Part shown: one piece after another, positions 19,219 to 63,188 of the stretch
How positions within the stretch are numbered: the first letter of the stretch is position 1
Layout: the number at the start of each line of letters is the position of its first letter
Assembly: GCA_018062345.1 (NCBI GenBank)
Contig: JAGOSL010000002.1
Coordinates: 130,192-194,191, forward strand
DNA: 64,000 nucleotides
DNA from: Pseudomonadota bacterium
Lineage (GTDB): Bacteria > Pseudomonadota > Alphaproteobacteria > Paracaedibacterales > CAITNM01
Reading direction: 5' to 3'
Translations under genes and position numbers: made by a program
Notes under the pieces: model-generated
Told to the model about the DNA's origin: nothing
What the model saw: the letters and a program-made list of their open reading frames with translations, nothing else
The model's database searches: none

Positions 19219-20550
19219 TTACGCTGCAAAGTATTCAAGTAAAATACTTATGCAATAAAGAATAGGTAATAGAATTACACATGACCATGCCATATAACCC
19301 AGGAAGCTAGGCATTTCAACGCCGCTTTGTTTTGCAATACTTCGCACCATAAAATTCGGGGCATTGCCAATGTAGCTTATGGCGCCCATGTATACGGACC
19401 CCAGAGATATAGCGAGTAATGTTGATGGTAACTGATGCATTAACGTTTGTGCGTTGCCACCTGCCATTTTGAAGAACAATAAGTATGTTGGGGCATTATC
19501 TAAAAATGCTGATAAACTGCCTGCAGTCCAGAAGTAGCGCGCAGCAATGGGAGAGCCGGAGGCATTGTGTGTGAAATCAAATAGTATGTGGAATGGGCCA
19601 TCAGCGCCTAGCTTTAGCATTGCTGATATAGGGATGAGGGTTAAGAAAATAACAAGAAATACGCGAGAAACTTCTTTTAATGGTTCAAAATTGAAGTGTT
19701 GTTGATGATGAACATGCTTTGGTGTTAGCCACAATGATATAGCGCCGATAGAAACGTAACTCAAGTCGCGAACAATATCTTGCCAGGAAATGCCTATTCC
19801 CATAATAGTGGCAGCATTGTCATCACTTAGTGTTGGCGCTAAAAGTGTAATTCCTGCAATTGCTATCATTAGTGCAAAGTTAAAGCCACCTTCAATTGTT
19901 ATGCCTACATCATTACGTTGAGAAATGGTGTGCTTATTTTTTACACGATCAATCAATGCAAAAATGCATAGGCTGCATGGGACAATAAAGAAAAATGGCT
20001 TCCACCCGTGTAACAACGTCCAAGAAAAATCAACGCCTGCCAGATATCCCATAAATAAAGGCGGATCCCCTAGGGGCGTTAAGCTGCCACCGATGTTTGC
20101 TACTATAAGAATGAAAAAAACACCCAGGTGAGTTTTATATGGGCGGTTGTGGTTAAGTTTTAGAAAAGGGCGAATCAATACCATTGATGCGCCTGTGGTG
20201 CCAATAAAATTGGCCAGGAAGGCTCCGATTAAAAGAATAAGTACATTATTTTTTAGGCTGTCAGAGATATTGAATTGCACATGAATACCGCCTGCGACTG
20301 CAAACAGGGCAAATAGTATTGCTATGAATGCAATATATTCATGAAATAGCATATGACCAAAATTGTGTATGGCTTGATGTGTGCCTTCAACACGGAACAT
20401 TGTGACTAATGTCCATATTCCAATAATTGCTAAAATATGCTTTTCAAAAGTATGCCAAATTTTAGGCAGCAACAAAGGACACAGAGCAAGTGCCAGCATC
20501 AGTGCTGTATATGGAATGGCGTCATACAATGAATACAATAATCCCTCCAT
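19219..20550 (-). CDS. ArsB/NhaD-superfamily ion transporter (putative Na+/H+ antiporter)
   Basis: 443 aa polytopic membrane protein. GASMVLIRPF and GDPPLFMGYL..V.F.WT resemble proteins usually annotated as sodium:proton antiporters of the citrate-transporter-like fold. Confidence 0.55.
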   Translation of the reverse strand: MEGLLYSLYDAIPYTALMLALALCPLLLPKIWHTFEKHILAIIGIWTLVTMFRVEGTHQAIHNFGHMLFHEYIAFIAILFALFAVAGGIHVQFNISDSLKNNVLILLIGAFLANFIGTTGASMVLIRPFLKLNHNRPYKTHLGVFFILIVANIGGSLTPLGDPPLFMGYLAGVDFSWTLLHGWKPFFFIVPCSLCIFALIDRVKNKHTISQRNDVGITIEGGFNFALMIAIAGITLLAPTLSDDNAATIMGIGISWQDIVRDLSYVSIGAISLWLTPKHVHHQQHFNFEPLKEVSRVFLVIFLTLIPISAMLKLGADGPFHILFDFTHNASGSPIAARYFWTAGSLSAFLDNAPTYLLFFKMAGGNAQTLMHQLPSTLLAISLGSVYMGAISYIGNAPNFMVRSIAKQSGVEMPSFLGYMAWSCVILLPILYCISILLEYFAA

Positions 20551-20553
20551 TTT

Positions 20554-20601
20554 TTGGCGTTCCCGACGGGATTCGAACCCATGGCCTCAAGATTAGGAAT
20601 C
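20554..20601 (-). repeat. 47-48 nt perfect copy of the 3' part of tRNA-Arg(CCU), from anticodon loop to CCA (att-like)
   Basis: tggcgttcccgacgggattcgaacccatggcctcaagattaggaatc is identical to 37069-37115, plus one flanking t. Same orientation as the intact gene. It ends 4 nt from the transporter ATG. Confidence 0.9.
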
Positions 20602-20998
20602 GTAAAATCTACTATTTTCTATAGCTTTAAATTCCTTAATAAACCTTTGCAAATATTTTTGTAACCCTTGTGTAGTCCCGAAAAAGATACAAAAACTAAG
20701 TTGAACTATAAACATGATGGATAATAAAATCAATTTTAATAAAGCAGCTTTTGATGGCACAAGATTTTTTTCTTCTGCGCCAGGTTCTGCCGAAATGTGT
20801 TGGAGGAACTGATGTTGCTTAGATAGTTGGAGGATGTTAGTAAAAGAATGAAGATATTTATGGTTACTAATTATGAAAGCAAAGCGAGATAAAGGAAGAA
20901 CTTAGAAGAGAATATCTATATATTGTCTTTAGCGTTTTGGAACATGAATACCTATTTAATACGCACGTAATCGAAGAACATAGTTCAAAGAGGTTTTT

Positions 20999-22534
20999 AT
21001 GAAGGCACTTCGTTTAGTTTTTTGGGATCAGTTATCTCTTTCTCTATCTTCATTAAAAGATGTTGGCCCTCATGATATTGTTTTAATGTGTGAATTACGG
21101 AATGAAGTAACGCGCGTTAAACATCACCCTAAAAAAATTGCATTATGGTTTTCAGCTATGCGCCATTTTGCCGAAGAATTAACTAATAAAGGGTTGAATG
21201 TTCGGTATATTGATTTTAATGATTCGTTGAATACCCATAATCTTACTGAAGAAGTTAAAAGGGCAGTTAATAGTAGTTTGATCAAGAAAATTATTGTCAC
21301 AGAGCCAGGAGAATATCATTTTCAAGAAACCATAAAATCATGGGAAAAAGCTCTAGATGTAGATGTGGAAATTCGCGCAGATGATCGATTTTTATGCGGC
21401 ATCGAAGAATTTAAAGAATGGGCTAGCACTAAAAAAGAGCTGAGAATGGAATACTTTTATCGGAATATGCGCAAAAAGTATCACATCTTAATCGAGCCAG
21501 ACGGACAACCCACAGGCGGGCTTTGGAACTACGATAAAGAAAATCGCAAACCTCTATCTAGGGATATTATCCCTATAAAGCGTATGATTCATAAAAAATC
21601 GGCGATTTTAATGAGCGTTTTAGAATTGGTTCGTGCCAATTTTAATAGTCATTTCGGGGACTTAGATCCATTTTATTATGCCATTACCCGTGATCAAGCG
21701 TTGATGGAGTTGGATCATTTTATTGATCAAATTTTACCACACTTTGGTGATTACCAAGATGCTATGCTGAAGGGGGATGCTTATCTTTATCATTCTCTTT
21801 TGTCTTCATATATTAATATTGGTCTTCTCTTACCCCTTGAAATATGTCAAAAAGCTGAAGCAGCCTATAGAAGAGGTAAGGTGTCTCTTAATTCTGCTGA
21901 AGGTTTTATCCGTCAAATTCTTGGATGGAGAGAATTTATAAGGGGGATTTATTGGTTTAAAATGCCTGGGTACGCTGATCTCAACACTCTTGATGCGAAA
22001 AATCCTCTCCCTAATTTTTACTGGGGGAAAAAAAACCATATGACTTGTGTGTCAGAGGCTGTTTCGGATACAAAAATTCACGCCTATTCTCATCATATTC
22101 AACGCCTGATGGTTACAGGAAATTTTGCACTTCTTGCAGGATTAGATGTTAAAGAGGTGCAAGAGTGGTATTTAGCGGTCTATAGTGATGCATATGAGTG
22201 GGTTGAAATGCCCAATACTCTTGGTATGACCCTTTTTGGTGATGGAGGGGTTGTTGCTAGTAAGCCTTATGCCGCAAGTGGTCAATACATCAATAAAATG
22301 AGTAACTTTTGCAAACATTGCGCTTATGATGTAAAAGATATGACGGGTCCTAAAGCTTGCCCATTTAATGCGCTGTATTGGAATTTTTTACAACGCCATC
22401 GCGAGTCATTTTCAAAAAATCCTCGCCTTTCTTTTATGTACAGTACCTGGGATAAGTTTGATATCTCTAAAAAAAATGCCATCATCTCCAAGGCTGCTGA
22501 TATTTTGAAAAAAATGGAAGAGGGAACTCTTTGA
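20999..22534 (+). CDS. cryptochrome/photolyase-family protein, FeS-BCP / bacterial (6-4) photolyase-like (COG3046 type)
   Basis: 511 aa. N-terminal LVFWDQLS..., a [12 protein letters not shown]-type helix, and a Cys set (MTCVSE...NFCKHCAYD...ACPFN) spaced like the 4Fe-4S ligands of CryB/PhrB. Confidence 0.75.
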
Positions 22535-22704
22535 TGTCCCAAAATATAAAAAAACAAGATCTTCCTCAAAAAGTATGTATCGTTTGCAAACGTCCCTTTA
22601 CCTGGAGAAAAAAATGGAAAAAAGTTTGGGATGACGTTAAATATTGCTCTTATAAATGTCAAAAGAATAAAAAATTTTTGGTATTAGTTCAGGAAAAAAC
22701 ATGA
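22534..22704 (+). CDS. DUF2256 zinc-ribbon protein (56 aa, absent from the ORF track)
   Basis: ATG overlaps the photolyase TGA (tgATGa). The translation contains [28 protein letters not shown], the DUF2256 signature. Confidence 0.7.
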
Positions 22705-22831
22705 AGAAAACTAGGATTATCAGAGCAGGTTTATTAGCTTTTACTTTGAAAGAAAAGCTTTCTCAAAAGTTAGTGACTGCGTATTTGAAATCTGCTGATT
22801 TTGTTGTTTCAAAAAATTCGAGTTACGTCTT

Positions 22832-23311
22832 ATGAAAATCAAAAAAACCCCCTACCTTTCTTTAATCATTTGGATTTTATCAATCATAACGATTGGAGGG
22901 CTTATTGGCTCTTTAACCAAGCCGCAGATCAGCACTTGGTATATAACCTTAAATCGTGCTCCACTAACACCACCAAATTACATATTTTCTGTGGCTTGGA
23001 CTTTATTATATGCAATGATTGGCACTTGTGGCTGGCTTATTTGGCGCGAAGATTCATTTGCCCGGCTAAAGGTTATAAAAACCATATTCGTGACTCAGCT
23101 TATTCTAAACTGGATTTGGACACCCGTATTTTTCTATTATCATTTACCCAACGTTTCTCTGCTAATTTTGTGTGCTATGGATATTCTGGTTGGTATAATA
23201 ATTTGCCAGGCCTATTTAACCAAGAGAGCGGTATTCTTTTTATTGATTCCCTATTTTTTATGGATTCTATTTGCTACCTACTTAAACTTTTATATTTGGT
23301 GGTTTAACTAA
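22832..23311 (+). CDS. tspO: tryptophan-rich sensory protein TspO/MBR
   Basis: 159 aa, 5 TM. W-rich motifs WY..L.RAP.TPPN..F...WTLLY..IG...W. Confidence 0.85.
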   Translation: MKIKKTPYLSLIIWILSIITIGGLIGSLTKPQISTWYITLNRAPLTPPNYIFSVAWTLLYAMIGTCGWLIWREDSFARLKVIKTIFVTQLILNWIWTPVFFYYHLPNVSLLILCAMDILVGIIICQAYLTKRAVFFLLIPYFLWILFATYLNFYIWWFN

Positions 23312-24201
23312 TATGTTTGCTGTAAATACGGAAGACATCCCCTTAAAAGACCAGATCTGTAATCTGGATAAATTAACTCTACACCTAATTTTTTAATAAT
23401 TTTTCTGTTATTAACTTTTTTGTTATCCGTAAAAAACATTTTTAAATTCTCTGAAATTTTTGCTTCTTCTTCCAGTATTTCTTTTAATTTATCCCTCTTC
23501 AAAATTGCAGCTCCAAACTGTTGGACTATGTGAAGCGGTGCAGGCTCATTATCGCTTATGTTATAAATTTCTCCTGGTGTCGGATGGTTTATTGATCCAA
23601 GAACTAATTCGCATATATCGTCTATGTGTATCCTAGAAAAATAATGATTTTTCTTAACGATCGTAAAATTTTTACCCATGAGAATGTCTTCTAAACAGTT
23701 TCTGCCAGGACCATAAATTCCTGATAATCGAAAGACATGTACAGGCGACTTAACTGTTTTATAAAGGCTTAACCATTGTATTTCTGCGTCTAATCTCGAT
23801 CTTGCTTTTTCATTGCTTGGATAGCATGGTGTTGTTTCATCAATCCAAGCACCTTTATGGTCTCCATAGACATTTGTTGACGAAAGGTATCCTGCCCACT
23901 GCAATGACGATTTTTTGGCTGCAATGATATTGCTATATTCTTGCAAGACCGGATCTGCATTTTTCTCATTTGGCGGAATGGTAGTCACAATTACATTAGA
24001 ATCTTCAATAATTTCTGGAAGAGTGGGGTCAAAAAAATTGATGAATCTGAGATTTTCCTTTTCAACTGGAATCCCGATCTCAATTTTTCTTGAGGTGCAT
24101 ACAACATTCCAGCCAAGATGATTAAATATTTTAATCAAAGACTTCGATACATAACCGTGACCAAAAATTATTGCTTTAACTTTATTAGGTAATAGGCGCA
24201 T
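23308..24201 (-). CDS. NAD(P)-binding epimerase/dehydratase-like (extended SDR) protein
   Basis: N-terminal Rossmann-like IIFGHGYVS, SSTNVYG, IYGPGR. 297 aa. Confidence 0.55.
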   Translation of the reverse strand: MRLLPNKVKAIIFGHGYVSKSLIKIFNHLGWNVVCTSRKIEIGIPVEKENLRFINFFDPTLPEIIEDSNVIVTTIPPNEKNADPVLQEYSNIIAAKKSSLQWAGYLSSTNVYGDHKGAWIDETTPCYPSNEKARSRLDAEIQWLSLYKTVKSPVHVFRLSGIYGPGRNCLEDILMGKNFTIVKKNHYFSRIHIDDICELVLGSINHPTPGEIYNISDNEPAPLHIVQQFGAAILKRDKLKEILEEEAKISENLKMFFTDNKKVNNRKIIKKLGVELIYPDYRSGLLRGCLPYLQQTY

Positions 24202-24242
24202 GTGACTTTATTGAAAGCTATCAAGCCAGACGTTGCCTGAGT

Positions 24243-24872
24243 TCATATAGGGAAACATAGTAGCTCACTGATTGACTCACTGACTGTCTCAAACCTTGCA
24301 AATAACTGGCCATCGTAATCATCATCTCCAATAGCAATCGCTGCCATATTTAGGTTTTTGGCAAATTCCCAGTCAGTAATGCTATCTCCAATATAAACAG
24401 TATCGCTAGCATTTAATTTGAAATGTTCCAGAGCAACTAAACCCATTTCAGGATTAGGCTTATCAAAAGCAGTGTCTCCCGACCCCAGAACTAAATCAGC
24501 GGGAATATTAAATAATTCAATTTCTTCACGTAAAAGACCACCTTTTTTATTGCTGATGATTGCAATAATTTTCTCAGCCTTTTTTAATGAGTTTAGCAAG
24601 GGAAGCGTTCCGTCATACAATTTTATATCCTTTTTATTTTCATTAATTGATTTATAAAAAACGTCTAGCGCTTCTTTCCAGTCATTTCCAAATAGCTTAG
24701 GAAAACTTTCTCGCGAGGAAAGTCTGGCTCGGATTTTAACTTCCTCCATGGAAATTTCTGCTCGTCCAAAATGTTTTAATGTAACATTTGTAGCTTTGAA
24801 AAGAGTCGGCCATGTATCAACTAAAGTATTATCCCAATCGAAAAATACTGCTTTGAATTTTTGCTTTATCAT
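24243..24872 (-). CDS. HAD-superfamily phosphatase (phosphoglycolate phosphatase-like)
   Basis: Motif I FFDWDNTLVD, motif II ISNK, motif IV GDSITD. Its ATG overlaps the secretin TGA (ATGA). Confidence 0.75.
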   Translation of the reverse strand: MIKQKFKAVFFDWDNTLVDTWPTLFKATNVTLKHFGRAEISMEEVKIRARLSSRESFPKLFGNDWKEALDVFYKSINENKKDIKLYDGTLPLLNSLKKAEKIIAIISNKKGGLLREEIELFNIPADLVLGSGDTAFDKPNPEMGLVALEHFKLNASDTVYIGDSITDWEFAKNLNMAAIAIGDDDYDGQLFARFETVSESISELLCFPI

Positions 24873-26536
24873 TTTAAGGGTCTCGGGTCTGTTGTGTATT
24901 CGCTCATTAATCGATGGTCAGCGCCATCAAGCGTGGCTCCATTATCCATAATTGTAGCTTTTAAGACAATCACTAATTCCACAATCGTGTCCCCTTCTGT
25001 CAAACTACCTGTTAGATCACGCACTAAAGGTATTTCATCTAGCCCAGGAACTCCTTGTCTGTGCTCTGATGAACGCACTTCCATTAAGCCCCCAAGAATA
25101 GCCATTTCTTTGTCTTGCAGTCTTAGAACTGAGTCAATTTCTCGTACTTCTACAACTGGAATCATTGATTGAGTTGGCGATTTAGAAGCATTTGTTTCGC
25201 TGCTAATAGATGCGTTAAAAGCAATATCAATAGCTGGGTCTGCAACGGTTTGGGTAAGCCTTGATATGCTTGGTCTTAAAAATAATATTATTTCACCAGT
25301 TTGTGGGTCAATTGAAGGCTGCACCAGCATAATTAATCCAATAGGAACTGTCTGAATATCACTCGATACAGTAGTGCTTTCTCGGTTGTTCTGTGAATTA
25401 TACATTTTGTCATAGTTAAGTCTGAAATAGACTTTATTTTGTGCAACTTTCAGTATGGCTGCTTGATTGTTCATAACAGTAAGACGCGGGCTTGATAACG
25501 TGCGAACTAGCCCGAATTCTTGTAAAGTATTAGCAATAGCTGAAAATTTTGTACCATCTGCTCCAAAGCTAATCATGTCGGTTTGGGCAGTAGTTGGGTC
25601 TAAAAAAATACCTTTTCTAGTCATGTCACCAAAGTTTGCTCGCACTTGAAGATCACTATTGGTCCCAACTGTATGCCAATTAATACCGCTCCTGTACTCA
25701 TCTTTCAGTGTTACTTCAATGATTTTTGCCTCTATTAAAACTTGGCAACAAGCTATTTGGCGCAGTTTTTTTAAATATAATTCTACCTGCTGATGTTGCT
25801 TTCTATTGGCATGTAAGGATATCAATCCTGCTTGCCTATGCATTGAATACGCCCCTTTTTCCGATCCAGCATCCAAAATGGTTTTTAAGTTTTGCTCTAA
25901 TTCATCCCAAAAGTCATTTTTGGTCGTGGCCTTTAATGCGCTTTTTGACACATTGTCGCTCATATTTGTTTTTGAGGGTCCAACACTTGAAAATACATCT
26001 GAAGCAATGGATAGTTGGTCTTCGCTGGTACGAGCAAGATTCAAGAACTGCACATTATAATTTTGTGAATATGCAATATCACGTTCTATGCGAATGGCAT
26101 TATCAATAACATCAAATCTTAAATTTGCCATCTCACACATAGATTTTATTACATCTATGAATGGGCGTTTTTTTGCCGTGAAAATAATCTTTGCATCAAT
26201 TGTGTGATCTAGTTGCAAATCAACATCTGCTTGTCGAGCTAACTCAATAAAAATATTTTTAAGGGGAACTCCTTCCGAAACCGAAATACTAACAGGCTGA
26301 TACATCATCTTAGGCAGTTTTGGAATTTTTACAGATCGAGATATTTTTTTAGCTAGTGGCCCTACTGTAAAATCAGTCGGTTGAACTAAATTCTTTGCTT
26401 CTTGTTTGCTTATTTTTGGCATTAGAGGTTGATGATCAACCATTTCTCTGCAGCCTGCCAACATTAAGAAAAGTGAAAAAAATAAAGCTAGCAATTTATA
26501 TCTCCATTTTACATCACCATCTGCTAAGTGAAACAA
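24869..26536 (-). CDS. lipoprotein secretin (MshL / type IVb-pilus-secretin-like)
   Basis: Lipobox LFLMLAGC. C-terminal secretin domain (RTLSSPRLTVMNNQAAILKV...IPVVEVREIDSVLRLQDKEMAILGGL...GVPGLDEIPL...ELVIVLKATI). TTG start assumed. Confidence 0.8.
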   Translation of the reverse strand: MFHLADGDVKWRYKLLALFFSLFLMLAGCREMVDHQPLMPKISKQEAKNLVQPTDFTVGPLAKKISRSVKIPKLPKMMYQPVSISVSEGVPLKNIFIELARQADVDLQLDHTIDAKIIFTAKKRPFIDVIKSMCEMANLRFDVIDNAIRIERDIAYSQNYNVQFLNLARTSEDQLSIASDVFSSVGPSKTNMSDNVSKSALKATTKNDFWDELEQNLKTILDAGSEKGAYSMHRQAGLISLHANRKQHQQVELYLKKLRQIACCQVLIEAKIIEVTLKDEYRSGINWHTVGTNSDLQVRANFGDMTRKGIFLDPTTAQTDMISFGADGTKFSAIANTLQEFGLVRTLSSPRLTVMNNQAAILKVAQNKVYFRLNYDKMYNSQNNRESTTVSSDIQTVPIGLIMLVQPSIDPQTGEIILFLRPSISRLTQTVADPAIDIAFNASISSETNASKSPTQSMIPVVEVREIDSVLRLQDKEMAILGGLMEVRSSEHRQGVPGLDEIPLVRDLTGSLTEGDTIVELVIVLKATIMDNGATLDGADHRLMSEYTTDPRPLK

Positions 26537-26688
26537 AAGTAATAGGACTTGAGTAGCTATCAGATTTTATATATTGATTCATATTAACAATAGAAATCTA
26601 AGCACTTCCTGTTTTATAAAACGAAATGCAACACCAAGATGTTTGTTAAAAAGTAGACATAAGTAATTGGTTTTGGATAAAAGCTACT

Positions 26689-28509
26689 CTAAAGAAGTGG
26701 CTCTTCTTGGTGCAAAAGCTCTTTAAGATTTTTTGGGATACAGATCCATGTTTCAATGTTATGTTGCAAAGCACGCTCCATAAGAATCTTACCTTGCTTT
26801 GTGGCTCCAGTATGGATAAGAAAAATTCCTTCAAGCCAGAGACCAAAAAGATCTTGTGAGTTTCTAGAAAGTATGGCGTTTATAAGGCCTTTTGCTTTTG
26901 TAAAATCATTGTTCTCAATAAGTTCGCTGATATATTGAACCAATAAATCACTTCTTTTGGGTGCTTTTTGTTGAATAGCGCTTGCAATGCCATCGAATAA
27001 AAATTCTTTTTCAATTGTAGATCCTTGGAAATGTCTCATTGCATGCAGTAATGCTATATCTAGAATTAATGGACTGGTTTTTGAATCATAATTTTTAAAT
27101 ATTAAATCTAGCTCATTCATCGTTGCCTGAGAGGGGGGCTGCTTCATTTTCTTTAAAATGCTCAAAGTGAAATGCCCAAGATGGAATCCCCTGTAATTAT
27201 AAGGTTGTTTTATATCACTTGCAGTTGGTAATTTCTTACTATGAGTAAATCTAAAAAATAAAGATTTTTGATTTGCAGGATATAAGATTGCTGTGTTCCA
27301 GTAAGTTACTGCTGCATAAGCACAAAAAATTGTTGAAATCCATAACCATAAAATAGTTAAAGGAGCTCTGGTGATGGTAATTCTATGCCGATTAAATATA
27401 GAAAAGCCCACTATTAAAAAAGGCCAGACACATACTAAGGTGAACCATGTGGATGTTAAGCATCCAAAAAGTATCACGAATATGAAAATGTGAATTCTAC
27501 TCTTTCTAGTGGTAGGTTCAGATAATGGCGTAACCAGCAAAGTAATGTAAAGAATTAGTCCGATTATTCCTATACTGAAAAGTGTTTCAGCGCCAAAATG
27601 CATGCAGTGGAAGTCTAGTCTGTCAATTCCATCCCAACTAGGCTTCCAAGAATTATCTTGAAAAAATGTAACAGGAAGCCTTGTTATTTGTTTTTGCAAA
27701 TTTTCAAAATAATATCCCCATCCATTGCCAGATAATAGTTTTAGTGGATTGTCGTTCCAGGTCAGCACATAACTCTGTAGGGCTAATTTTCTGGATTCTA
27801 GTGAAGAAAATACAGGCCATTTCTCAACAATATGCTTAGCGCCTAGAACGTATATAGCTATTATCGTTCCAAACGGAATACTTGCACATAAATATTTTTG
27901 CAAACGTTGTCTGTGTTTTATTATAGGCCAAACACATAAGCTTAAAGCAAGCGCTGCCCATGCTGTTTTATTGTGCGATAATAGCAAGAGCAGGCAGCTA
28001 AGCAAGAGAAGAATTTTTTGTTGTGTCTTGCTTTTTAAGTGTGTGCTTACCGCATAAATTCCTAGTGCGATTGGTGCTAGAAAAGCTCCAAAAACGTAAG
28101 GAAGCCAATCTGGATTAACTTTTAAACCATGCTGGGGATGATGCAGAAAAACTAAAATTCCCGCAACAATACCTGCGAAAACCGCAGACCAATATATAAT
28201 GCTTTTTTCAGAGGAATTATCGATTGCAAAAGATAAAAGAGATAAACCGCAAAATAGCACTGACCCTTCTCCTAGCAAAGGGCTGCCTAAATGGTGCACG
28301 ATGGAATTGTTGGCCCATAATGTTGAAAATAAAGAAAAAAGGCCGAAACCAAAGAAAATTAATGTGTGAGCTGAGCAATACAGCTTTCTTTTTAGGCTCC
28401 ATAAAATAATCAAACATAAGCCCAGAACTGAAAATATCAAATGTGCTGTAGCCAAAACGCATTCTGAATCAACCCATATGCCAATCCTAAATGGTGGAAG
28501 CGCCATCAA
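26689..28509 (-). CDS. O-antigen ligase-like (Wzy_C) polytopic membrane protein with C-terminal TPR-like region
   Basis: At least 10 TM segments. Wzy_C-like loop plus MHFGAETLFSIGIIGLILY. Soluble C-terminal ~190 aa with TPR-like helices. This is the PglL/PilO-type architecture. Confidence 0.6.
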   Translation of the reverse strand: MMALPPFRIGIWVDSECVLATAHLIFSVLGLCLIILWSLKRKLYCSAHTLIFFGFGLFSLFSTLWANNSIVHHLGSPLLGEGSVLFCGLSLLSFAIDNSSEKSIIYWSAVFAGIVAGILVFLHHPQHGLKVNPDWLPYVFGAFLAPIALGIYAVSTHLKSKTQQKILLLLSCLLLLLSHNKTAWAALALSLCVWPIIKHRQRLQKYLCASIPFGTIIAIYVLGAKHIVEKWPVFSSLESRKLALQSYVLTWNDNPLKLLSGNGWGYYFENLQKQITRLPVTFFQDNSWKPSWDGIDRLDFHCMHFGAETLFSIGIIGLILYITLLVTPLSEPTTRKSRIHIFIFVILFGCLTSTWFTLVCVWPFLIVGFSIFNRHRITITRAPLTILWLWISTIFCAYAAVTYWNTAILYPANQKSLFFRFTHSKKLPTASDIKQPYNYRGFHLGHFTLSILKKMKQPPSQATMNELDLIFKNYDSKTSPLILDIALLHAMRHFQGSTIEKEFLFDGIASAIQQKAPKRSDLLVQYISELIENNDFTKAKGLINAILSRNSQDLFGLWLEGIFLIHTGATKQGKILMERALQHNIETWICIPKNLKELLHQEEPLL

Positions 28510-28754
28510 AAACAGCCAAAAGCTAGCAGCTATACAAATAAATAGGCATTTTTCAAAAAAATAGCTTACTCTCTTTATTGTAATCTCCGCATTTTCAGCT
28601 AGTGTTGTTTGTTAACTTTTGCTTAGTTTTTTTGATAAAGTAAGTTTTATCTTCCTTATGATGTCTTTAAATATTTAGAACCGTGTTTAAATAACAACGG
28701 TTGCCTGAAATAATAGCTAAAATATGAAATCAGTAGTAAGAAAAGACTTCATAT

Positions 28755-29741
28755 TTGTTAGTCTATATTCGTAAAGTTATAGATTTTTATCCTGTGGGCA
28801 ATTTTTGCGCGCTATTTTTATTTTTAATCGCACCCCTTCTAGGTAGCGTTGCCATTCCTTCTGTGAATCACCAGCCGGCAGTTCAAAGTCAAAACGTTGT
28901 AGGCGATACAGCAGGTGAGTCGAACGAGCCAGTCGAACAAATTACTGAAGCTCCTTCTTTAAAAGCTGCACCTATTAATCCTGATGAGCCTCAATCTTTT
29001 AAGCTTATGCCTCATAAGGCAGTTTATGAAATACATTTGCATCCAGATCCTCTTAAAAAACCAAAGGACCCTACAATTAGCGATGTGACTGGTACCGGTT
29101 CAATTGAGATTATCAAAACTAAGGAAGGTTGGGTATACCGTCAAAATTTGGCTGTACAAATTCACTATCACGATGGCACAACAACAACCATTGAGAGAAA
29201 TATTGCTTCTTGGGAATCTCCAACAGAAATATCTTTTCACATTGAAAATTTTCGTGATGGTGTGACAGAATCCCTTCTGCAAGGTGGAGCCGAAGCAACA
29301 GAAGAGGGAATTTGGAGTGTGTATTTTCAAAAACCTGAAATGGATGGCTTTATAACAGACCAACCTCTTACTTTTCCGATAATGCATCTTGAAAAAGTGC
29401 TTGAAACTATCAAAAAGGGAAACTGTATGAAGGTAGGGTGCATTCTTTCTAATCAGATTGTCTTTTCATATGAGCTGCAAGCACAAGTGCGAATTGATAC
29501 GATCGTGATTCCATTAAAAGGAGAAAGATTCTCTTTAAAAGATAGCTCATTGTTGCCCTCGAATAAGCTTTGGCGTCTCCAAGAGGCCTTATATGAATTG
29601 CAGTCAAATAATTCTGTTCCTGACTATGAAGAAAGCAACATCGATATATTTTCCACAGGCGTTATTAGTGCAATGGAAACAACGTGGGGAGAAGGTATAA
29701 CAGTTGTTTTAAAGCTTAAAGAGCTGACGGTTTATCAATAA
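28755..29741 (+). CDS. DUF1849 / EipB-like periplasmic protein
   Basis: Signal-like N-terminus, then PHKAVYEI...GW...SWES...F.DG...LTFPIMHLEKVLETIKKG, resembling the alphaproteobacterial DUF1849 pattern (PHRAVYDL...FPT.H). TTG start. Confidence 0.5.
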   Translation: MLVYIRKVIDFYPVGNFCALFLFLIAPLLGSVAIPSVNHQPAVQSQNVVGDTAGESNEPVEQITEAPSLKAAPINPDEPQSFKLMPHKAVYEIHLHPDPLKKPKDPTISDVTGTGSIEIIKTKEGWVYRQNLAVQIHYHDGTTTTIERNIASWESPTEISFHIENFRDGVTESLLQGGAEATEEGIWSVYFQKPEMDGFITDQPLTFPIMHLEKVLETIKKGNCMKVGCILSNQIVFSYELQAQVRIDTIVIPLKGERFSLKDSSLLPSNKLWRLQEALYELQSNNSVPDYEESNIDIFSTGVISAMETTWGEGITVVLKLKELTVYQ

Positions 29742-29856
29742 AAATTATAAATTCAGGTATTTCTGCAGGTAAAATATCTGAGGAAGCTTAGGCTTTTTTC
29801 TATAGCCTAATCTTATAATTTTTATCGTAACGTTAATTATTTTTGATAAAAAAAAT

Positions 29857-29893
29857 AAAGAGCTGCTTATTAAAACAGCTCTTTAGTATTTTT
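29857..29893. terminator. bidirectional rho-independent terminator between convergent genes
   Basis: AAAGAGCTG-cttattaaaa-CAGCTCTTT 9-bp stem flanked by an A-run (upstream) and a T-run (downstream). Confidence 0.6.
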
Positions 29894-29901
29894 GTAGAGA
29901 G

Positions 29902-31989
29902 CTAGTCTTGATTGACTGCTTTCATGCTTAGCTTTATTTTCCCGCGGTCATCAAACCCAAGAACCTTTACTTGCACGATATCGCCAAGCTTAACAACATC
30001 CTCAGTTTTGTTAACGCGAGTTGGGGCTAATTCACTAATGTGTACTAAGCCGTCACGTCCACCCATAATGTTTACAAACGCTCCAAATTCGGCAACTTTT
30101 ACGACTTTGCCTTCATAGATATGACCAACTTCTGGGTCACAAGCAATTCCTTGAATCATTTTTACTGCTGCATCCATTGCTTCTTGTGTGACGCCAGCTA
30201 CAGTAACTTGGCCGTCGTCTTCAATGTCAACTTTAGCGCCAGTTGTTTCGCAAATTTCGCGAATTACTTTACCGCCAGAACCAATCACTTCACGAATTTT
30301 GGAAGGATTAATTTTAAAGGTTGTCATCTTTGGCGCATACGTACTTAATTGGCTTCTGGAATATTCAAGAGCTTTAGACATTTCCCCAAGAATATGTAGG
30401 CGACCTTTTTGTGCTTGTGCTAAAGCTTCTTTCATAATGCTGGCAGTAATACTGGTAATTTTAATGTCCATTTGCAGAGCTGTAATACCCTCTGTAGTTC
30501 CAGCAACTTTGAAATCCATATCTCCCAAATGATCTTCATCGCCTAAAATATCACTTAGAACTGCATATTTTTTTCCTTCTTTTACAAGCCCCATAGCAAT
30601 GCCAGCAATAGGTTTAGATAATGGTGTGCCAGCATCCATTAGGGCAAGTGATGTGCCGCATACGGTTGCCATTGAAGATGAACCATTAGATTCAGTGATT
30701 TCTGAAACCACACGAATTGTGTAGGAAAACTGTTCTTTTGTAGGTAGTAGTGGATTAATTGCTCTCCATGCTAACTTTCCATGACCTATTTCACGTCTGC
30801 CAACGCCGCTTAAGCGTCCTACTTCACCGACGGAATATGGTGGAAAATTATAATGAAGTAAAAATCGCTCTTTATATTCACCTTCCAAAGCATCAATAAT
30901 TTGTTCATCTTGGCCTGTTCCAAGTGTCGCAACAACTAACGCTTGTGTTTCTCCGCGGGTAAATAACGCGCTTCCATGAGCACGTGGTAAAACGCCAACT
31001 TCTGCAACAATTGGGCGAATCTCATCAAGTTTTCGACCATCAAGCCTTTTTTGTGAATCCAAAATGTCACCACGCAGAATCTCTGATTGCAAATCGGTAA
31101 AGGCACTGTTTACTAATTTTGGAGATGTTTCCATATACTCAGCTAGTTCTTGCGCAACTTTTTGTTTTGCGGCGTCAATTGCTGCATAGCGGTCTTGTTT
31201 AATTTTTATGTTATATGCTTTGCGTAAATCTTTTTCCGCAATCTTTGCAACTTTTTTTGAAATTTCTGTAACTTCAGAGGCTGCTTTAGGCAGTGCCCAT
31301 TGTGGTTTTCCTGCTTTTTTTACAAGCTTTTCAATAAGTTTTAAAACTGGTTGAAAGCTTTCATGTCCGAATTCTACGGCACTTAGCATTATATCTTCTG
31401 GTAGTTCTTTTGCTTCTGATTCAACCATTAATACTCCTTCTTTGGTGCCAGCTACAACCAAATCAAGATCTGATGCCTTCATTGCTTCAAGAGTAGGATT
31501 AAGAACTAATTTTCCATTAATGTGCCCAACTTTTGCTACCCCTACTGGTCCTTGAAAAGGAATACCTGAGATTGCAAGTGCTGCAGAAGCACCAATCAGC
31601 GCAGTAATATCGGTATCATTTTCAAAGTCATAAGCGAGTACTGTGCAAATAACTTGCACTTCGTTGCGAAAATCTTCAGGAAATAAGGGGCGAATCGGTC
31701 TGTCAATAAGCCGAGATTTCAGTGTTTCAGAATCAGAAGGTCTGCCTTCGCGACGCAAAAATCCTCCGGGAATTTTTCCAGCAGCAAATGTTTTTTCTTG
31801 GTAGTGTACGCTTAAGGGGAAAAAATCTATATCAGGCTTTGCATCTTTTTGTGCAACGACGGTACACAATACTGTTGTTCCGCCATAGGTTGCCATTATG
31901 GCACCATCTGCTTGGCGGGCAACTTTCCCTGTTTCTAGTACTAGTTTGCGGCCAGCCCATTCAATTTCTTCACGTGTAATGTTAAACAT
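29902..31989 (-). CDS. pnp: polyribonucleotide nucleotidyltransferase (PNPase)
   Basis: Two RNase PH domains plus KH and S1 ([13 protein letters not shown]). 695 aa. Confidence 0.95.
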
Positions 31990-32016
31990 AAAATTTCCTA
32001 ATGGTTAAAATGTAAA

Positions 32017-32047
32017 ATGGAAGAACCGCAAGCATGTTCTTCCATTA
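32017..32047 (-). terminator. rpsO terminator / pnp leader hairpin
   Basis: 11-bp stem AATGGAAGAAC...GTTCTTCCATT followed on the minus strand by TTTTACATTTT. Its position matches the classical rpsO-pnp intergenic hairpin. Confidence 0.6.
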
Positions 32048-32088
32048 TGTGTTTACAGCAGATAATGTGATTCAAATTTTTCACAAAT

Positions 32089-32358
32089 TTAGCGACGAAT
32101 ATTCAAGCGCTTAATTAACGTTTGATAACGATCCTCATTAACGCGCTTTAAATAATCAAGTAAGCGGCGACGCTGGCCGACAAGCATCAGCAATCCTCGA
32201 CGAGAGTGTAAATCGTGCTTGTGTTCTTGCATGTGGTCGGAAAGATTTTTAATGCGTTCAGATATAATAGCAACCTGAACTTCTGGTGAACCCGTATCAC
32301 TCGCTTTTGTTGCAAATTCTTTAATAACTTCTTGTTTACGTGTTGGACTAATCGACAT
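32089..32358 (-). CDS. rpsO: 30S ribosomal protein S15
   Basis: 89 aa. GSPEVQVA..., [22 protein letters not shown]. Confidence 0.95.
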
Positions 32359-32378
32359 CGAACATTCCTTTACTTTAG

Positions 32379-33242
32379 TTAAATGTTAAACACACGATCC
32401 GGATAAAATATATTATCTTGCACGTGACCAAGGGCGATGAGCTTGTCATCGAGCCAGGCCGAAGTATTAGAACAATTGCTTTTACATACTTCAACTGCTT
32501 GACCGTGCTGGATCTTAGTAGCCTTTTGAAACGATACAGATACTGCCGGGATGTCGTCCAGAACAGATCCAATCGGTAACAAAAAGCAAGCCAGGGAAGT
32601 ATCGCCTATTTTTTTTATATTTTCCAGTGAAATCGCATTATCAATATTAAAATGGCCAACACGTGTTCTCCTCAACATTGTTAAATGGCCAACAGATCCA
32701 AGGTATAACGCCAGATCCCTTCCCAGGGAGCGCACGTATGTTCCTGTGCCACATGTTACGCTGAGAGTGGCGTTTCCCCCTTCATAAGCATCAAGAGTAA
32801 GGTCATAAATTTTTACTTGCCTAGAAGGCATGTCTATTTCTTCTCCATCACGAGCTCTTTTGTAAGCTGGTTTTCCTTTAATTTTTATCGCTGAATATAT
32901 TGGCGGAGTTTGCTGTATTAAGCCTGTAAAAATTTTTAAAGATGAATATATGTCTTCTAAGGAAGGTCTGTGTTCAGAAGTAGCAACAATCTCACCTTCT
33001 GTGTCACCCGTTGTTGTTTGGGCTCCAAAAGAAAGAGTAAATTGATAAGTTTTTGAACTATTCATCAAATAAGGCATTGTTTTAGTGGCTTCGCCAAGGG
33101 CTAAGGGCAAAACTCCACTTGCAAAAGGATCTAGTGTTCCCGCGTGGCCAATCTTTTTTTGGCCAAAAGCACGCTTTACTATGCTGCCAGCATGAGTAGA
33201 GGTTATGCCTTCAGGTTTATCTAAAACTAGCCAGCCGTGCAT
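32379..33242 (-). CDS. truB: tRNA pseudouridine(55) synthase
   Basis: [11 protein letters not shown] and [15 protein letters not shown] (catalytic Asp). Confidence 0.9.
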
Positions 33243-33245
33243 ATG

Positions 33246-33884
33246 CTAAAAACGATAATAAATGATGCAATCGGGATTTTTGTTATCCAAATTCAAATGT
33301 CCGTCTCTTATGCATCTTCCTGTAGCTCCTGGTGCATCTTTCACGATTAATTGCCCTTGATTGAGGTCAACTGCGCTACTTCCTTGATCAATTTTATTTT
33401 TCAAAGCTTGAGCTTGTTTTGGGGTTAAAAGGCCAGAGCCTTCTTCTTTTGCTAACATAAGCCAATGTCCAGGCATTTCTGCTGAGGGTTGAAACACAAC
33501 AGTGTATTTCCCGCCAAGCTTCGAGGCTGGTGCTTTGTCACCATTGATAATAGATGCCTTACTTAAGTGCTGCCAGAAAAGATCTGCCTCAACACCTGTA
33601 ATCTGGCCATTACCATCGCCAGATGTTGTGCCTGTGAAATGCATTGTTGCTCTGGGATCATCCCCAGGAAGAGACTGATAAATTTCTTGATACGTGTTGA
33701 CAGCTAGCGAGTAATGTTGAAAATCTTGAACAACAGAGCGAATTTTTGCATTTCCTAAAAGTTCTTGACCTTTAAAAACAGCTCCGGTGATAAGCCCAAT
33801 TACTACCAGCACAATAGACATTTCTATCAAAGAGAAAGCTGGAACTACCATGGTCAGTGGCTTTTTCCATCTGCTATTTCTCAT
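33246..33884 (-). CDS. type IV pilin-like / pseudopilin protein (prepilin-type N-terminal methylation domain)
   Basis: Leader MRNSRWKKPLTMVVPA, then FSLIEMSIVLVVIGLITGAVF (F1...E5 hydrophobic helix). C-terminal Cys pair GRCIRDGHLNLDNKNPDC resembles a pilin D-region. Its stop lies 3 nt before the truB start. Confidence 0.7.
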   Translation of the reverse strand: MRNSRWKKPLTMVVPAFSLIEMSIVLVVIGLITGAVFKGQELLGNAKIRSVVQDFQHYSLAVNTYQEIYQSLPGDDPRATMHFTGTTSGDGNGQITGVEADLFWQHLSKASIINGDKAPASKLGGKYTVVFQPSAEMPGHWLMLAKEEGSGLLTPKQAQALKNKIDQGSSAVDLNQGQLIVKDAPGATGRCIRDGHLNLDNKNPDCIIYYRF

Positions 33885-34064
33885 TAATTTGTCCTTTTTT
33901 ATGGTCCATGATTAGTATAAAAGGTTTTTCTATGGAATCAATTCTTTAAGCATATTCGAATTGAGTAATTGAAAGTTGCTTATATTTCTGAAGTTGAATG
34001 ACTTGGCATAAAAAGCACGCTCTAAAAATTAGAACGTGCTTAAAAGTGATTTGTTTTGTTTTAC

Positions 34065-36140
34065 TTATGCAGCGCCTGCTGCTTCAGTTTGCTTTGAGAG
34101 GTATGGCGCCAAGGATTGTTGCAGTGGTGATGTAACAGATGCTTTTAGAGTGCTTTCATCTACTACTGACGTTTGGGGGTTAGGCGCCAAATTTTCGCCA
34201 TTATTTATTACTTCATCGCCTGCGGAGTTATCAAGAGGAAGAGTTTGTTGTTGCTCCATATTCGTGCCGTCATCTGCTAAACCATTTGCAACGGGTTTTG
34301 TTACTTCGTCGCCTGAGGAGTTATCAAGAGGAAGAGTTTGTTGTTGCTCCATATTCGTGCCGTCATCTGCTAAACCATTTGCAACGGGTTTGGTTACTTC
34401 GTCGCCTGCGGAGTTATCAAGAGGAAGAGTTTGTTGTTGCTCCATATTCGTGCCGTCATCTGCTAAGCTATTTGCAACGGGTTTGGTTACTTCGTCGCCT
34501 GCGGAGTTATCAAGAGGAAGAGTTTGTTGTTGCTCCACATTCGTGCCGTCATCTGCTAAACCATTCGATTGAGAAGCTAAATCTCCAGCAGGGGCATTTA
34601 GAAGGGTAGGCGATAACATTGCGTTATCATCTTTAGTTTTTGCTGTGGCCACTTGTATAATAGCGTTATGAGCTTTATCTAGTCTTTTCTCTGCTTCTAG
34701 TTTTTCTTCTTCTGCCTTTTGTGCCAGAATAGCTGCCTGTTTAGCTTCTTCTTCTGCTGCTAATTTTTCCTGTTCAGCCTTTTGCGCTAAGATTGCCGCT
34801 TGTTTAGCCTCTTCTTCTGCAGCCAGTTTTTCTTCTTCTGACTGCTCACGGGCTGCTTTTTCTAGAATTAATTCATTTTGTGTTGCATCTAAAATTGCTT
34901 TAGCGTTTTCAGCTTCTAGATCAGCTTTTGCTTTTTCTAATTTTTGTTCGTCGGCTGTAGTAAGTGCCTGAGCGGCCAACTCTTTAGCAGCATCTAGCTG
35001 TGCTTGCATAAGTCTCATTGATTCCATGGCTGCTTCATATTCTTTTACAGCTAGGTTATGTTTTTCTTGTAATGATTTCATTTCATCAGGTGAAAAAGTA
35101 GTTGACCTTAGGTGCTCCACATATCTGCGTGCTGTTTGAGGATCTATTTCCGATGAAAACATTAGATTAACAGATATACCTTCTCCAGATATGCGAATTT
35201 GTCGCAGGTTATTACTATTTTCATCATCTAAAGCTAAAGAAAACATTGCAACAGCTACATTTGGAAGTGTACTGAATAGTTCTAAAAGTTTGCTTACAAG
35301 TTTTAAAAAGGTTTCTTGGGTAGCTTTAGGATCAGAAGTTGTGCAGACAAGATTCATTTGTTTGCCCTCAAATATACCGTCTCCAAACTGAAATTTCTTG
35401 GTTAGAAGGCCTTCTGAATTTGTAGCTGCTGGAAGATCAGTATTAACAGATTGCCCTGGTTCAGCAGCAACAGCATATGCCCCTGATTTTAACTTTTCTT
35501 GAAGTTCAGCTAACTCTTCTTTCGCCTTTTGTAATGCTTTCTCCTTTTCTGTGGCTTCTAAATCAGGGACTTCATAAACATAAACGGATGCTTGCTTGCC
35601 AAGAATTAAAGACGCATTTGGATCAGGCTCTTCTGTGTATGGGTATAAATAATTATTTTCGTCTTTATACATCCACCATTCTTTTGGATCTCCAGAATAT
35701 CCGGGAAAATTACCGATGTTTGCATTTGCAGGAACAAGCTTAATCTCATCCTTGTTATCATTTTTTCTTAATACGTATACAATTGCCGCACCTTCTGGCA
35801 TCTTTTCTCCTGCCATATACGGAAAATTTTGTTTGCCAGTTGGGTCGTATATTCCACCATCTTGGAATTTAAGTTTTTTAGTAATCATGCCTGGATGCAT
35901 TGATTTATCAAAAAATTGAACTTCAATTTCATTGCCGTCCAAATTGATCGCTTTGTATTTTTTTTCTGATTTTTCCTCTGAAGAATGTTCTTTATTTTCT
36001 TCTGAAATAGCAGAGTCTGTTGCAGCTAGAGCAGGGCTCTGCCCTTCAATTGAAGCAGAATCTTCTGCTGTTGCATGCATTTCATTTATCCAAGAGAACG
36101 AAGAACCTAAAAGTAAGGAAAATAATAATTTTTTATTCAT
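34065..36140 (-). CDS. secreted repeat protein (coiled-coil A/E/K-rich region plus 4 x 31-aa C-terminal repeats)
   Basis: Signal peptide MNKKLLFSLLLGSSFSWINEMHA. EEKLAAEEEAKQAAILAQKAE repeats. NGLADDGTNMEQQQTLPLDNSAGDEVTKPVA x4. Confidence 0.6.
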   Translation of the reverse strand: MNKKLLFSLLLGSSFSWINEMHATAEDSASIEGQSPALAATDSAISEENKEHSSEEKSEKKYKAINLDGNEIEVQFFDKSMHPGMITKKLKFQDGGIYDPTGKQNFPYMAGEKMPEGAAIVYVLRKNDNKDEIKLVPANANIGNFPGYSGDPKEWWMYKDENNYLYPYTEEPDPNASLILGKQASVYVYEVPDLEATEKEKALQKAKEELAELQEKLKSGAYAVAAEPGQSVNTDLPAATNSEGLLTKKFQFGDGIFEGKQMNLVCTTSDPKATQETFLKLVSKLLELFSTLPNVAVAMFSLALDDENSNNLRQIRISGEGISVNLMFSSEIDPQTARRYVEHLRSTTFSPDEMKSLQEKHNLAVKEYEAAMESMRLMQAQLDAAKELAAQALTTADEQKLEKAKADLEAENAKAILDATQNELILEKAAREQSEEEKLAAEEEAKQAAILAQKAEQEKLAAEEEAKQAAILAQKAEEEKLEAEKRLDKAHNAIIQVATAKTKDDNAMLSPTLLNAPAGDLASQSNGLADDGTNVEQQQTLPLDNSAGDEVTKPVANSLADDGTNMEQQQTLPLDNSAGDEVTKPVANGLADDGTNMEQQQTLPLDNSSGDEVTKPVANGLADDGTNMEQQQTLPLDNSAGDEVINNGENLAPNPQTSVVDESTLKASVTSPLQQSLAPYLSKQTEAAGAA
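34208..34570. repeat. 93-bp tandem repeat, about 3.9 near-identical copies, in-frame within the CDS
   Basis: Units start at 34208, 34301, 34394 and 34487 (ttacttcRtcgcctgMggagttatcaagaggaagagtttgttgttgctcca...). Only a few substitutions between copies. Confidence 0.9.
34700..34835. repeat. about 63-bp tandem repeat (about 2 copies) encoding the A/E/K-rich 21-aa unit
   Basis: gccttttgYgcYaRaatWgcYgcYtgtttagcYtcttcttctgc recurs with a 63-bp period. Coordinates are approximate. Confidence 0.6.
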
Positions 36141-36209
36141 AATAATAAAACCCTAGTTAAGAATTTTTAACCTGAGTCTATTAAATCAAAAATAAATTAA
36201 TAAAATATT

Positions 36210-36243
36210 AAAAAAGCTCACCAAAGTATAGCGAGCTTTTTTT
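36210..36243. terminator. rplT terminator hairpin (A/T-flanked, potentially bidirectional)
   Basis: AAAAAAGCTC-accaaagtatagc-GAGCTTTTTT just downstream of the rplT stop. Confidence 0.5.
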
Positions 36244-36263
36244 AAAGTTTAGTTTGAAAAAAA

Positions 36264-36617
36264 TTAGGCAGACTTTTTAACTTGATCTACTAAAGCTTTG
36301 AAACTTTCAGGCTGATTCATTGCTAAATCAGCAAGAACTTTCCGATCGATATCAATATTGTTTTTTTGCAAAGCGCTAATGAATACTGAATAGGTTAGCC
36401 CCAATTCACGGACAGCTGCATTAATACGCTGAATCCAAAGTGCCCTAAAATTACGCTTCTTAACGCGGCGATCGCGATAAGCATAAGTTAATGCTTTTTC
36501 AACTCTCTGTATTGCTGAGCGAAAGCAAGTGCTAGAGCGCCCACGATAGCCTTTGGCCATCTTTATAATTTTTTTGTGACGTGCGTGCGTTGTGACGCCT
36601 CTTTTTACTCGTGCCAT
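36264..36617 (-). CDS. rplT: 50S ribosomal protein L20
   Basis: [17 protein letters not shown]..., 117 aa. Confidence 0.95.
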
Positions 36618-36626
36618 GATAACTCC

Positions 36627-36824
36627 TTAGACGTGAAAATAGTAAGTGCGAATACGCTTGATCTCTGGAGATGCGCATATTTTCATGCCGCGAGCATTTC
36701 GTAAAAATTTATTTGAACGTTTCCGCATGCCATGGCGTTTTCCAGCCGGAGCTACCTTCACTTTTCCTGTGCCAGTAAGGCGAAAGCGCTTCTTGACACT
36801 GCTTTTTGTTTTTAATTTGGGCAT
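36627..36824 (-). CDS. rpmI: 50S ribosomal protein L35
   Basis: [22 protein letters not shown]..., 65 aa. Confidence 0.95.
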
Positions 36825-37068
36825 TTTATCTCTCTAAAGTTAATAATTTAAGTAATTTACCGCAACAAAGGCATGCCCGGGCACTATACCCTAGCCACGC
36901 TGCTATATAGTGTATAAATGGTTTTTTTGTATAAATCAAGAATTTTTGTGTGCGAGTTCAGGCGATTTGAGTCAACAAAGCCATGATTTATAGCTTATTA
37001 AATGCAACCCCGGTGCAACCTCGAGCAATCTTTATGACGCTACTAAATCTTAAATACATTGGTGCAAT

Positions 37069-37145
37069 TGGCGTTCCCGACGGGATTCGAACCCATGGCC
37101 TCAAGATTAGGAATCTTGCGCTCTATCCTGCTGAGCTACGGGAAC
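37069..37145 (-). tRNA. tRNA-Arg (anticodon CCT), CCA encoded
   Basis: Reverse complement: GTTCCCG-TA-GCTC-AGCAGGATA-GAGC-G-CAAGA-TTCCTAA-TCTTG-AGGCC-ATGGG-TTCGAAT-CCCGT-CGGGAAC-G-CCA. Confidence 0.92.
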
Positions 37146-55620: not shown

Positions 55621-55637
55621 TATTTAAATTTAAAGAA

Positions 55638-55778: not shown

Positions 55779-55869
55779 AGCGTCACTTTTTCTAGATTCG
55801 AGCGGTTGATCAAGAAGGGTAGCCTATGGGTGATGCGATTAATATTAACGCAACCTATAAGGGCAATTT

Positions 55870-63038: not shown

Positions 63039-63142
63039 AATAAATGAAGGCGTTTTAGGGGCTTTTGTTTTTAGTCAAAAAATTTCAGTGCTACCCTGGT
63101 GCTACTTTTAACGAAAGTTAAGAAAATATCTTAATTGAAATT

Positions 63143-63188
63143 TCCTAGATTTTAAGGCCATGGGTTCGAATCCCGTCGGGAACGCCAA
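63143..63188 (+). repeat. third, inverted copy of the tRNA-Arg(CCU) 3' segment (34 nt exact, 5' third diverged)
   Basis: 63155-63188 aggccatgggttcgaatcccgtcgggaacgccaa is identical to the tRNA-Arg 3' end. 63143-63154 (ttcctagatttta) is a diverged match to the anticodon region. No tRNA 5' half precedes it. Confidence 0.85.

Follow-up and report, generated by a model that had tools for sequence, protein, structure and literature searches.

We analyzed a 64-kb stretch of DNA (contig JAGOSL010000002.1, positions 130,192 to 194,191; hereafter the window), in which an intact tRNA-Arg(CCU) gene and a displaced copy of its own 3' part bracket a segment of 16.5 kb. Next to the displaced copy, the bracket contains a 3.2-kb module of photolyase, TspO, and epimerase genes, with the epimerase-like gene in convergent orientation. 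It is followed by a 12.7-kb block that makes up ~77% of the bracket interior and carries genes for a HAD protein, a secretin, a 606-aa protein, an EipB-like protein (on the plus strand), pnp, rpsO, truB, a pilin-like protein of 212 aa, a 691-aa repeat protein, rplT, and rpmI, together with ~118 nt of the native rpmI leader. The whole bracket is tightly packed, with 397 nt as the longest non-coding gap. Of the genes listed in a preliminary description of the locus, the DPRP photolyase, TspO, the secretin, pnp, rpsO, truB, rplT, and rpmI were confirmed using Pfam, which also identified the epimerase-like, HAD, and EipB-like proteins, and DUF2256 was recognized by way of the annotation of another strain of the same species (L001).

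ARAGORN called three tRNA genes in the window, and the intact tRNA-Arg(CCU) gene, which was also recognized by Rfam, is identical or near-identical to the sole tRNA-Arg(CCU) of three related metagenome-assembled genomes (MAGs). A repeat search found the two copies to be a 48-nt direct repeat of 100% identity that starts at G31 of the tRNA, two bases 5' of the anticodon loop, and ends one A after the CCA. The underlying 47-mer occurs exactly twice in the window even when three mismatches are allowed, with none expected from 100 shuffles. The fragment lies 3' of the gene in the same orientation, is not called as a tRNA by ARAGORN or Rfam, and ends 3 nt before the ATG (20550) of a transporter gene. 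In the other strain mentioned above, the fragment carries a single G-to-C substitution (1 of 48 positions) that breaks the T-stem, as is to be expected of a non-functional copy or relic. The repeat, the intact gene on the minus strand, and the position and orientation of the partial copy thus all stand as they had been described. An intact tRNA gene with a same-orientation 3' fragment of the same gene downstream, and with an identity block at the anticodon-centred 'A' subsite, corresponds to a known arrangement, as this subsite is used by 2083 of the 3919 islands in the Islander collection (PMC4383910). We therefore call the two copies attL and attR, for left and right attachment (att) sites (Table 1).

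Using the 47-mer, we scanned one genome per GTDB species and obtained single matches in three MAGs (L003, L004, and L005). In each of them, the match is an intact tRNA-Arg(CCU) gene that lies directly between orthologues of the Sel1-like gene and of the transporter, ileS, and lspA genes, which span 15.6-20.6 kb in the window. The segment 20602-37068 is thus missing from the same site in these relatives and is an insertion in the lineage of the window. These empty sites uphold the attL/attR geometry proposed in the preliminary description, which had also raised the question of whether relatives carry tRNA-Arg directly before the transporter gene. The same description had placed the initiation region of the transporter inside tRNA-derived sequence. 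This is correct in that the ATG follows the CCA by 4 nt, but it is not a consequence of the insertion, as the ATG is located 3-5 nt past the intact tRNA in all three relatives and the overlap is hence ancestral. Between the transporter and ileS genes, one of these relatives (JBKCOJ; L005 5558-6571) has an extra gene of the MarR family that the species of the window lacks.

Table 1. Features of the tRNA-Arg bracket, its flanks, and the third att-like copy (window coordinates).
Feature	Position	Strand	Basis or remark
CitMHS_2 transporter gene, ancestral 3' neighbour of tRNA-Arg (B' flank)	19219..20550	-	Pfam
attR copy, displaced tRNA-Arg 3' fragment	20554..20601	-	100% identical repeat
Non-coding attR-side segment	20602..20998	-	Absent from relatives' empty sites
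Module: photolyase-related (DPRP), DUF2256, 44-aa open reading frame, and TspO (+); epimerase-like (-)	20999..24201	+/-	Pfam; L001 annotation
Relocated chromosomal block	24243..36942	-	Collinear with L009 19326-2916 and with L007
34 nt between arm and rpmI-upstream homology, illegitimate junction	36943..36976	-	Alignment; blastn homology ends at 36942
Arm beside attL, probably element-derived	36977..37067	-	~80% identical to 63189-63281 (local alignment)
attL copy, 48-nt identity block (tRNA positions 31-77 + 1 nt)	37068..37115	-	100% identical repeat
Intact tRNA-Arg(CCU), probably the regenerated attL side	37069..37145	-	ARAGORN; Rfam RF00005, 69.3 bits
Sel1-like 525-aa gene, ancestral 5' neighbour of tRNA-Arg (B flank)	37244..38821	-	
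Third, diverged identity-block copy with arm	63142..63281	+	Core 63142-63188; attP-like look

Both junctions recur in independent assemblies from NCBI, ENA, JGI, and Logan at 95-100% identity, the attL junction in at least eight and the attR junction in at least two of them, and the structure is therefore real and not an artefact of assembly. All same-species contigs examined (95-100% nucleotide identity) have only the arrangement in which tRNA-Arg adjoins rpmI, and neither an empty site nor an alternative context was found among the indexed same-species contigs. The same order of Sel1-like gene, tRNA-Arg, and rpmI was seen throughout the 10 contexts shown for the 23 contigs with an identical RplT. 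There is accordingly no second copy or context of the block, and the arrangement is fixed in the species.

The origin of the block was traced through its homologues. Graded identities were obtained for PNPase, with 99-100% in the same species, followed by groups at 92%, 89%, 79%, and ~70%, the last of which consists of proteins that their sources label Paracaedibacter or Paracaedibacteraceae. In the 92% group (L006 and L007) and the 89% group (L008-L010), tRNA-Leu and phaC are followed by the divergent rpmI, rplT, and repeat protein genes, and then by (MFS, PfkB), the pilin-like gene, truB, rpsO, and pnp. The 89% group continues with (peptidase S66), the EipB-like gene, a gene for an unknown protein, (a 245-aa protein), the secretin, and HAD genes, and then with a branched-chain amino-acid transporter gene, mreB, and mreC. 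By blastn, window positions 24291-36942 are collinear with L009 19326-2916, and the homology to both L007 and L009 stops at 36942. One contig of a relative (JBKCOJ010000005.1) contains both the block (L009; 320-342 kb) and the empty tRNA-Arg site (L005; 144-152 kb). A distance of more than 170 kb separates the block from tRNA-Arg there, and the two are opposite in orientation and in the sign of the GC skew at third codon positions (GC3 skew), from which we infer that the two loci lie on opposite replichores.

The identities of PNPase, TruB, and the pilin-like protein are higher between the window and L007 than between the window and L009, the latter being about as similar as L007 and L009 are to each other. 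These protein comparisons suggest a topology in which the window and L007 are sisters and L009 branches off earlier. With such a topology, the adjacency of phaC and rpmI that L007 and L009 share would be ancestral and the arrangement of the window derived. Relative to the JBKCOJ MAG (GCA_046309815.1), the block proteins are 56-95% identical (the 691-aa repeat protein 52%) and the flank proteins 76-94%, and these overlapping ranges indicate that the block was vertically inherited and moved within the genome rather than imported. Two strains have a 94-aa PfkB remnant at the position of the intact MFS and PfkB genes of the relatives, which fits decay after descent from the ancestral block. The GC content of the block (0.38) equals that of the flanks; that of the 3.6-kb photolyase end of the bracket is 0.35. 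The block exists as a single, vertically inherited copy that is fixed in every strain sampled, and the interior of the bracket is mostly ordinary chromosomal DNA and not an island. The secretin operon, the pilin-like gene, and the repeat protein had initially been regarded as accessory, but in the relatives they form part of one conserved block with pnp, truB, and rplT. Three explanations had been offered for this mixture of genes. Paralogous core genes are not supported, given the single context of rplT, and neither is a capture of core genes by an element, as the block diverges from the relative to the extent that the flanks do and the bracket has no integrase. The evidence agrees with the remaining explanation, an old island that later rearrangement fused with core DNA.

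Two regions of the block deserve mention on their own account. The gene of the 691-aa protein contains tandem repeats at 34208-34565 (93 nt, 3.8 copies, 96% matches) and at 34690-34840 (63 nt), and complete calls of the protein range from 646 to 774 aa among strains and relatives. We read this combination of variable length and tandem repeats as that of a contingency-type variable surface or repeat protein. The ~118 nt 5' of rpmI (36825-36942), which are strongly conserved in the species of the window, L007, and L009, include a GC-rich hairpin GCAGCGTGGCTAGGG...GCCCGGGCATGCC and moved together with the block. This stretch may serve as the leader of the L35/L20 operon or as a promoter element; neither the leader nor the attL arm has a match in Rfam, and no covariation was found in the leader hairpin.

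Of the 125 nt between the end of the block and tRNA-Arg, all of which are foreign to the relatives, the ~91 nt adjoining the tRNA match the sequence beside a third copy of the identity block, which has diverged and is located 26 kb away in inverted orientation. This arm is not present at the empty sites of the relatives. The third copy retains the 3' 33 nt of the block without change, whereas its anticodon-stem part is altered with the 4-bp stem and the 7-nt loop kept. It is located 100 nt inside a strain-specific segment (63042-64000, continuing in L012 11470-16840) that begins right after tRNA-Asn (62964-63039) and was found only in the strain of the window and in L012. In three other strains (L011, L013, and L014), the homology to the window breaks off at 63041, two bases after the end of tRNA-Asn; two go on with rpsT, with topA next in the longer contig, and the contig of the third ends there. 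In the strain of the window, the segment encodes a secreted 714-aa protein and a 563-aa toxin-like protein, the gene of which lies beside a SUKH immunity gene, and it is probably a second tRNA-linked island. The diverged third copy and the shared arm point to a family of att-like sequences that is tied to tRNA 3' ends in this lineage, and the fact that the arm is homologous to the sequence beside the third copy supports an element origin of the repeat. The arm also contains a tandem pair of hexamers, GTTGCA-N5-GTTGCA. We considered the motif GTTRCA-N5-GTTRCA, which is present in both homologous arms, as a candidate for arm-type binding sites, but rejected it as its count is not above chance.

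On the attR side, 27 nt beside the core have a weak likeness to the upstream flank of the third copy. Within the adjoining non-coding DNA, ~118 nt on the upstream side of the photolyase gene (20853-20970) are swapped for ~98 nt of unrelated sequence (L001 9601-9698) in a strain that is otherwise 98-99% identical. Another strain (L029, VFQS010002930; 98.5% identical) leaves the window sequence ~23 nt into the epimerase gene, as counted from its 5' end. When window positions 24178-24243 are compared with L029 1-520, everything to the left of the HAD gene is replaced by a different gene, of which a 115-aa C-terminal fragment without a Pfam match is present. The DNA near attR is thus polymorphic within the species and still changing. 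Homologues of the module at 81-84% identity are found in unrelated contexts, and in other genomes (L025 and L027), photolyase and epimerase homologues (81-82% and 71% identity, respectively) occur linked to each other at unrelated sites.

Genes that could mobilize the segment were searched for in the window and in the 4.4 kb beyond its end. No integrase was detected by Pfam in any open reading frame of at least 110 aa across the whole window, including a tyrosine integrase (PF00589) between the tRNA gene and its fragment, nor in the 4.4 kb beyond, which agrees with the absence noted for the bracketed DNA in the preliminary description. Genes for an excisionase, phage proteins, or conjugation were likewise found neither in the window, bracket included, nor in the 4.4 kb past its end. 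Among the PHROGs families, there were only generic matches of the secretin, HAD, and epimerase proteins and, on the flanking Sel1-like protein, a single family without known function, so no prophage was recognized. Promoter and terminator scans of both junctions gave nothing above the shuffled expectation.

Taken together, we consider it probable that the two copies are the relic attL and attR sites of a degraded element of the tyrosine-integrase type, the interior of which was replaced by chromosomal rearrangement. An element would have recombined with tRNA-Arg(CCU) at the anticodon-loop subsite in the ancestor of the species, and its integration would have regenerated the tRNA and displaced the original 3' part to the transporter gene. 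The interior of the element would subsequently have been lost with its genes, leaving as survivors only short non-coding arms, which measure ~91-125 nt on the attL side and at most 397 nt on the attR side. The 12.7-kb block, which is adjacent to phaC and on the opposite replichore in the relatives, and the 3.2-kb module would then have come between the scars. A conceivable route consists of two inversions, one nested in the other, that span the replication axis and each have one endpoint within the old island, as these would generate exactly the observed product with a block that is inverted relative to the chromosome and yet keeps its orientation to replication. Excision and reinsertion would be equally compatible, as would a reciprocal exchange by which the integrase went to the donor locus. 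As there is no recombinase gene in the window, the segment is most likely immobile.

Several observations weigh against this interpretation. Neither an integrase or excisionase nor an intact related element was found, so that the role of an integrase is argued from the geometry of the repeat and the homology of the arm. Scans of viral contigs gave no match for the core and none for the core with the arm. The three matches to an 18-mer of the arm, considered as traces of a related element, were dismissed as chance because only the 18-mer is shared. A metagenome scan returned only contigs of the same species, and BLAST searches of phages and plasmids returned only matches to the tRNA part. The photolyase module may be cargo of the old island, but it may just as well be a second relocated module. 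GC3 skew, which we tried as a signal for the time of arrival, is weaker in the bracket than in the flanks (p ~0.002), but as the orthologous block of L009 is also weak, it is uninformative in this respect. The donor locus in the species of the window could not be identified by way of phaC homologues either, as three genomes, which are not tied to this species, had three different phaC neighbours (Sdh5/TLC, RibD_C, and a ruvAB-containing cluster), and no att-like sequence was found at the examined phaC loci.

It is in principle conceivable that no mobile element was ever involved and that the 48-nt duplication arose from the illegitimate or homology-driven rearrangement that moved the block, for example by recombination with a second copy of tRNA-Arg or by a replication error. 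The missing integrase and element genes would be in line with this, as would the fluid gene order of the group, in which phaC has four different neighbours across genomes. However, the duplication begins 2 nt ahead of the anticodon loop and stops one base beyond the CCA, which is the extent of a classic integrase identity block, the relatives lack the ~91 nt that adjoin the tRNA and are homologous to the sequence beside the other att-like copy, and the relatives show a single match to tRNA-Arg(CCU). We therefore regard an origin without an element as unlikely.

A second alternative is that the bracket is a functional, mobilizable island with captured core genes that a cognate integrase encoded elsewhere still excises or inverts. 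Both core copies are intact and identical, the arms are kept, a related att-like site is found in inverted orientation in the same strain, and the DNA adjacent to attR varies between strains, all of which would suit such an island. Against this, the integrase is absent from the 64-kb window and the 4.4 kb beyond, no same-species contig has an empty site or an alternative context, excision would remove the sole detected copy of rplT and rpmI, and the attR copy is already mutating in one strain, so that a functional island appears quite improbable. A related possibility, to which we give similarly little weight, is that a trans-acting integrase, for instance one from the tRNA-Asn-linked element, still acts on the att sites and that the block from rpmI to pnp was moved by site-specific recombination. 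If so, the block could excise as a 16.5-kb circle, or the 26 kb between the inverted copies at 37.1 and 63.1 kb could flip, and a recombinase of a mobile element would rewire the order of essential genes in an intracellular alphaproteobacterium.

The opposite polarity, in which the arrangement of the window is ancestral and the relatives lost the segment at tRNA-Arg and reinserted it beside phaC, is very improbable. Direct repeats would permit a precise deletion, but L007 seems to be nearer to the species of the window than L009 is and yet shares the adjacency of phaC and rpmI with L009. Moreover, the MFS and PfkB genes are intact in the relatives whereas the species of the window has a decaying remnant or none, and the relatives have no counterpart of the arm sequences. 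A chimeric join at the repeated tRNA sequence, for which one could cite that the source assembly is probably metagenome- or host-derived and that repeats are typical points of misassembly, is effectively refuted by the recurrence of both junctions in independent assemblies.

The region upstream of phaC varied in its own right. In the phaC loci examined (L007, L009, L031, L032, and L036), it differed from species to species and contained the rpmI block, Sdh5 with a TLC ATP/ADP translocase, RibD_C, or a ruvAB-ptsI cluster, and homology always ended ~105-137 nt upstream of phaC. From these comparisons, the region looks like a recurrent rearrangement breakpoint, and the TLC translocase points to an intracellular lifestyle. 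Elsewhere in the window, Rfam recognized a cobalamin riboswitch (55625-55790; RF00174, 102 bits) that precedes a TonB-dependent receptor, TonB, and an ABC cluster, as is usual for such riboswitches. One contig of another strain (JACCDN010449946.1; L011 and L030) is 95.0% identical to window positions 51.6-63.0 kb and 99.0% identical to 34.3-46.2 kb, and this mosaic divergence suggests recombination between strains.

When compared with known systems, the bracket shares with Islander-type tRNA islands (PMC4383910) the intact tRNA with a downstream same-orientation 3' fragment, the identity block at the 'A' subsite, the empty site in related genomes, and an element-type arm beside the core. It differs from them in that it has no integrase, mobility, phage, or conjugation gene, and in that ~77% of its interior is a vertically inherited block with ribosomal-protein genes. 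Without an integrase, it would be rejected by the Islander filters. As it lacks both an integrase and a horizontally acquired interior, the 12.7 kb being orthologous and collinear with the chromosome of the relatives, it does not qualify as a tRNA-integrated island. Since it works like such an island and in our interpretation descends from one, the most fitting label for it is that of a relic att bracket.

Degraded island remnants and orphan tRNA gene fragments are among the subjects discussed in PMC9897764. As in such remnants, the footprint that is left is a partial tRNA copy that has no function and gathers mutations; unlike in these, both att scars are perfect in the strain of the window and enclose relocated core DNA rather than decayed cargo. 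Rearrangement breakpoints are known to occur at tRNA genes and prophages, including those of inversions that are symmetric about the replication axis. The bracket resembles such cases in its tRNA-linked breakpoints and in a block that moved from one skew domain to the opposite one while its strand-bias orientation was kept. The difference is that the inversions would here have to be deduced from their net result, which is a clean 12.7-kb translocation into an att bracket and not a large inversion that can be seen as such. Aberrant excision of the type seen in specialized transduction follows the paradigm of lambda gal/bio. There, too, chromosomal genes become joined to element arms between att sites, but in our case no element genes are left, there is no merodiploidy, and the illegitimate junction lies only ~100 nt from the core.

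The bracket is thus a well-documented case of a known type of genome scar and does not represent a new mobile system or mechanism. Its value lies in being a clean and well-polarized example of an attachment scar that outlived its element and now encloses essential core genes. Programs that call islands from a tRNA and its fragment will either miss such a bracket, as it has no integrase, or mis-call its core genes as cargo. For the organism itself, two tRNA 3' ends within the 64-kb window, those of tRNA-Arg and tRNA-Asn, are breakpoints, and gene order in this uncultured lineage related to Paracaedibacteraceae is being reshuffled at tRNA-linked sites.

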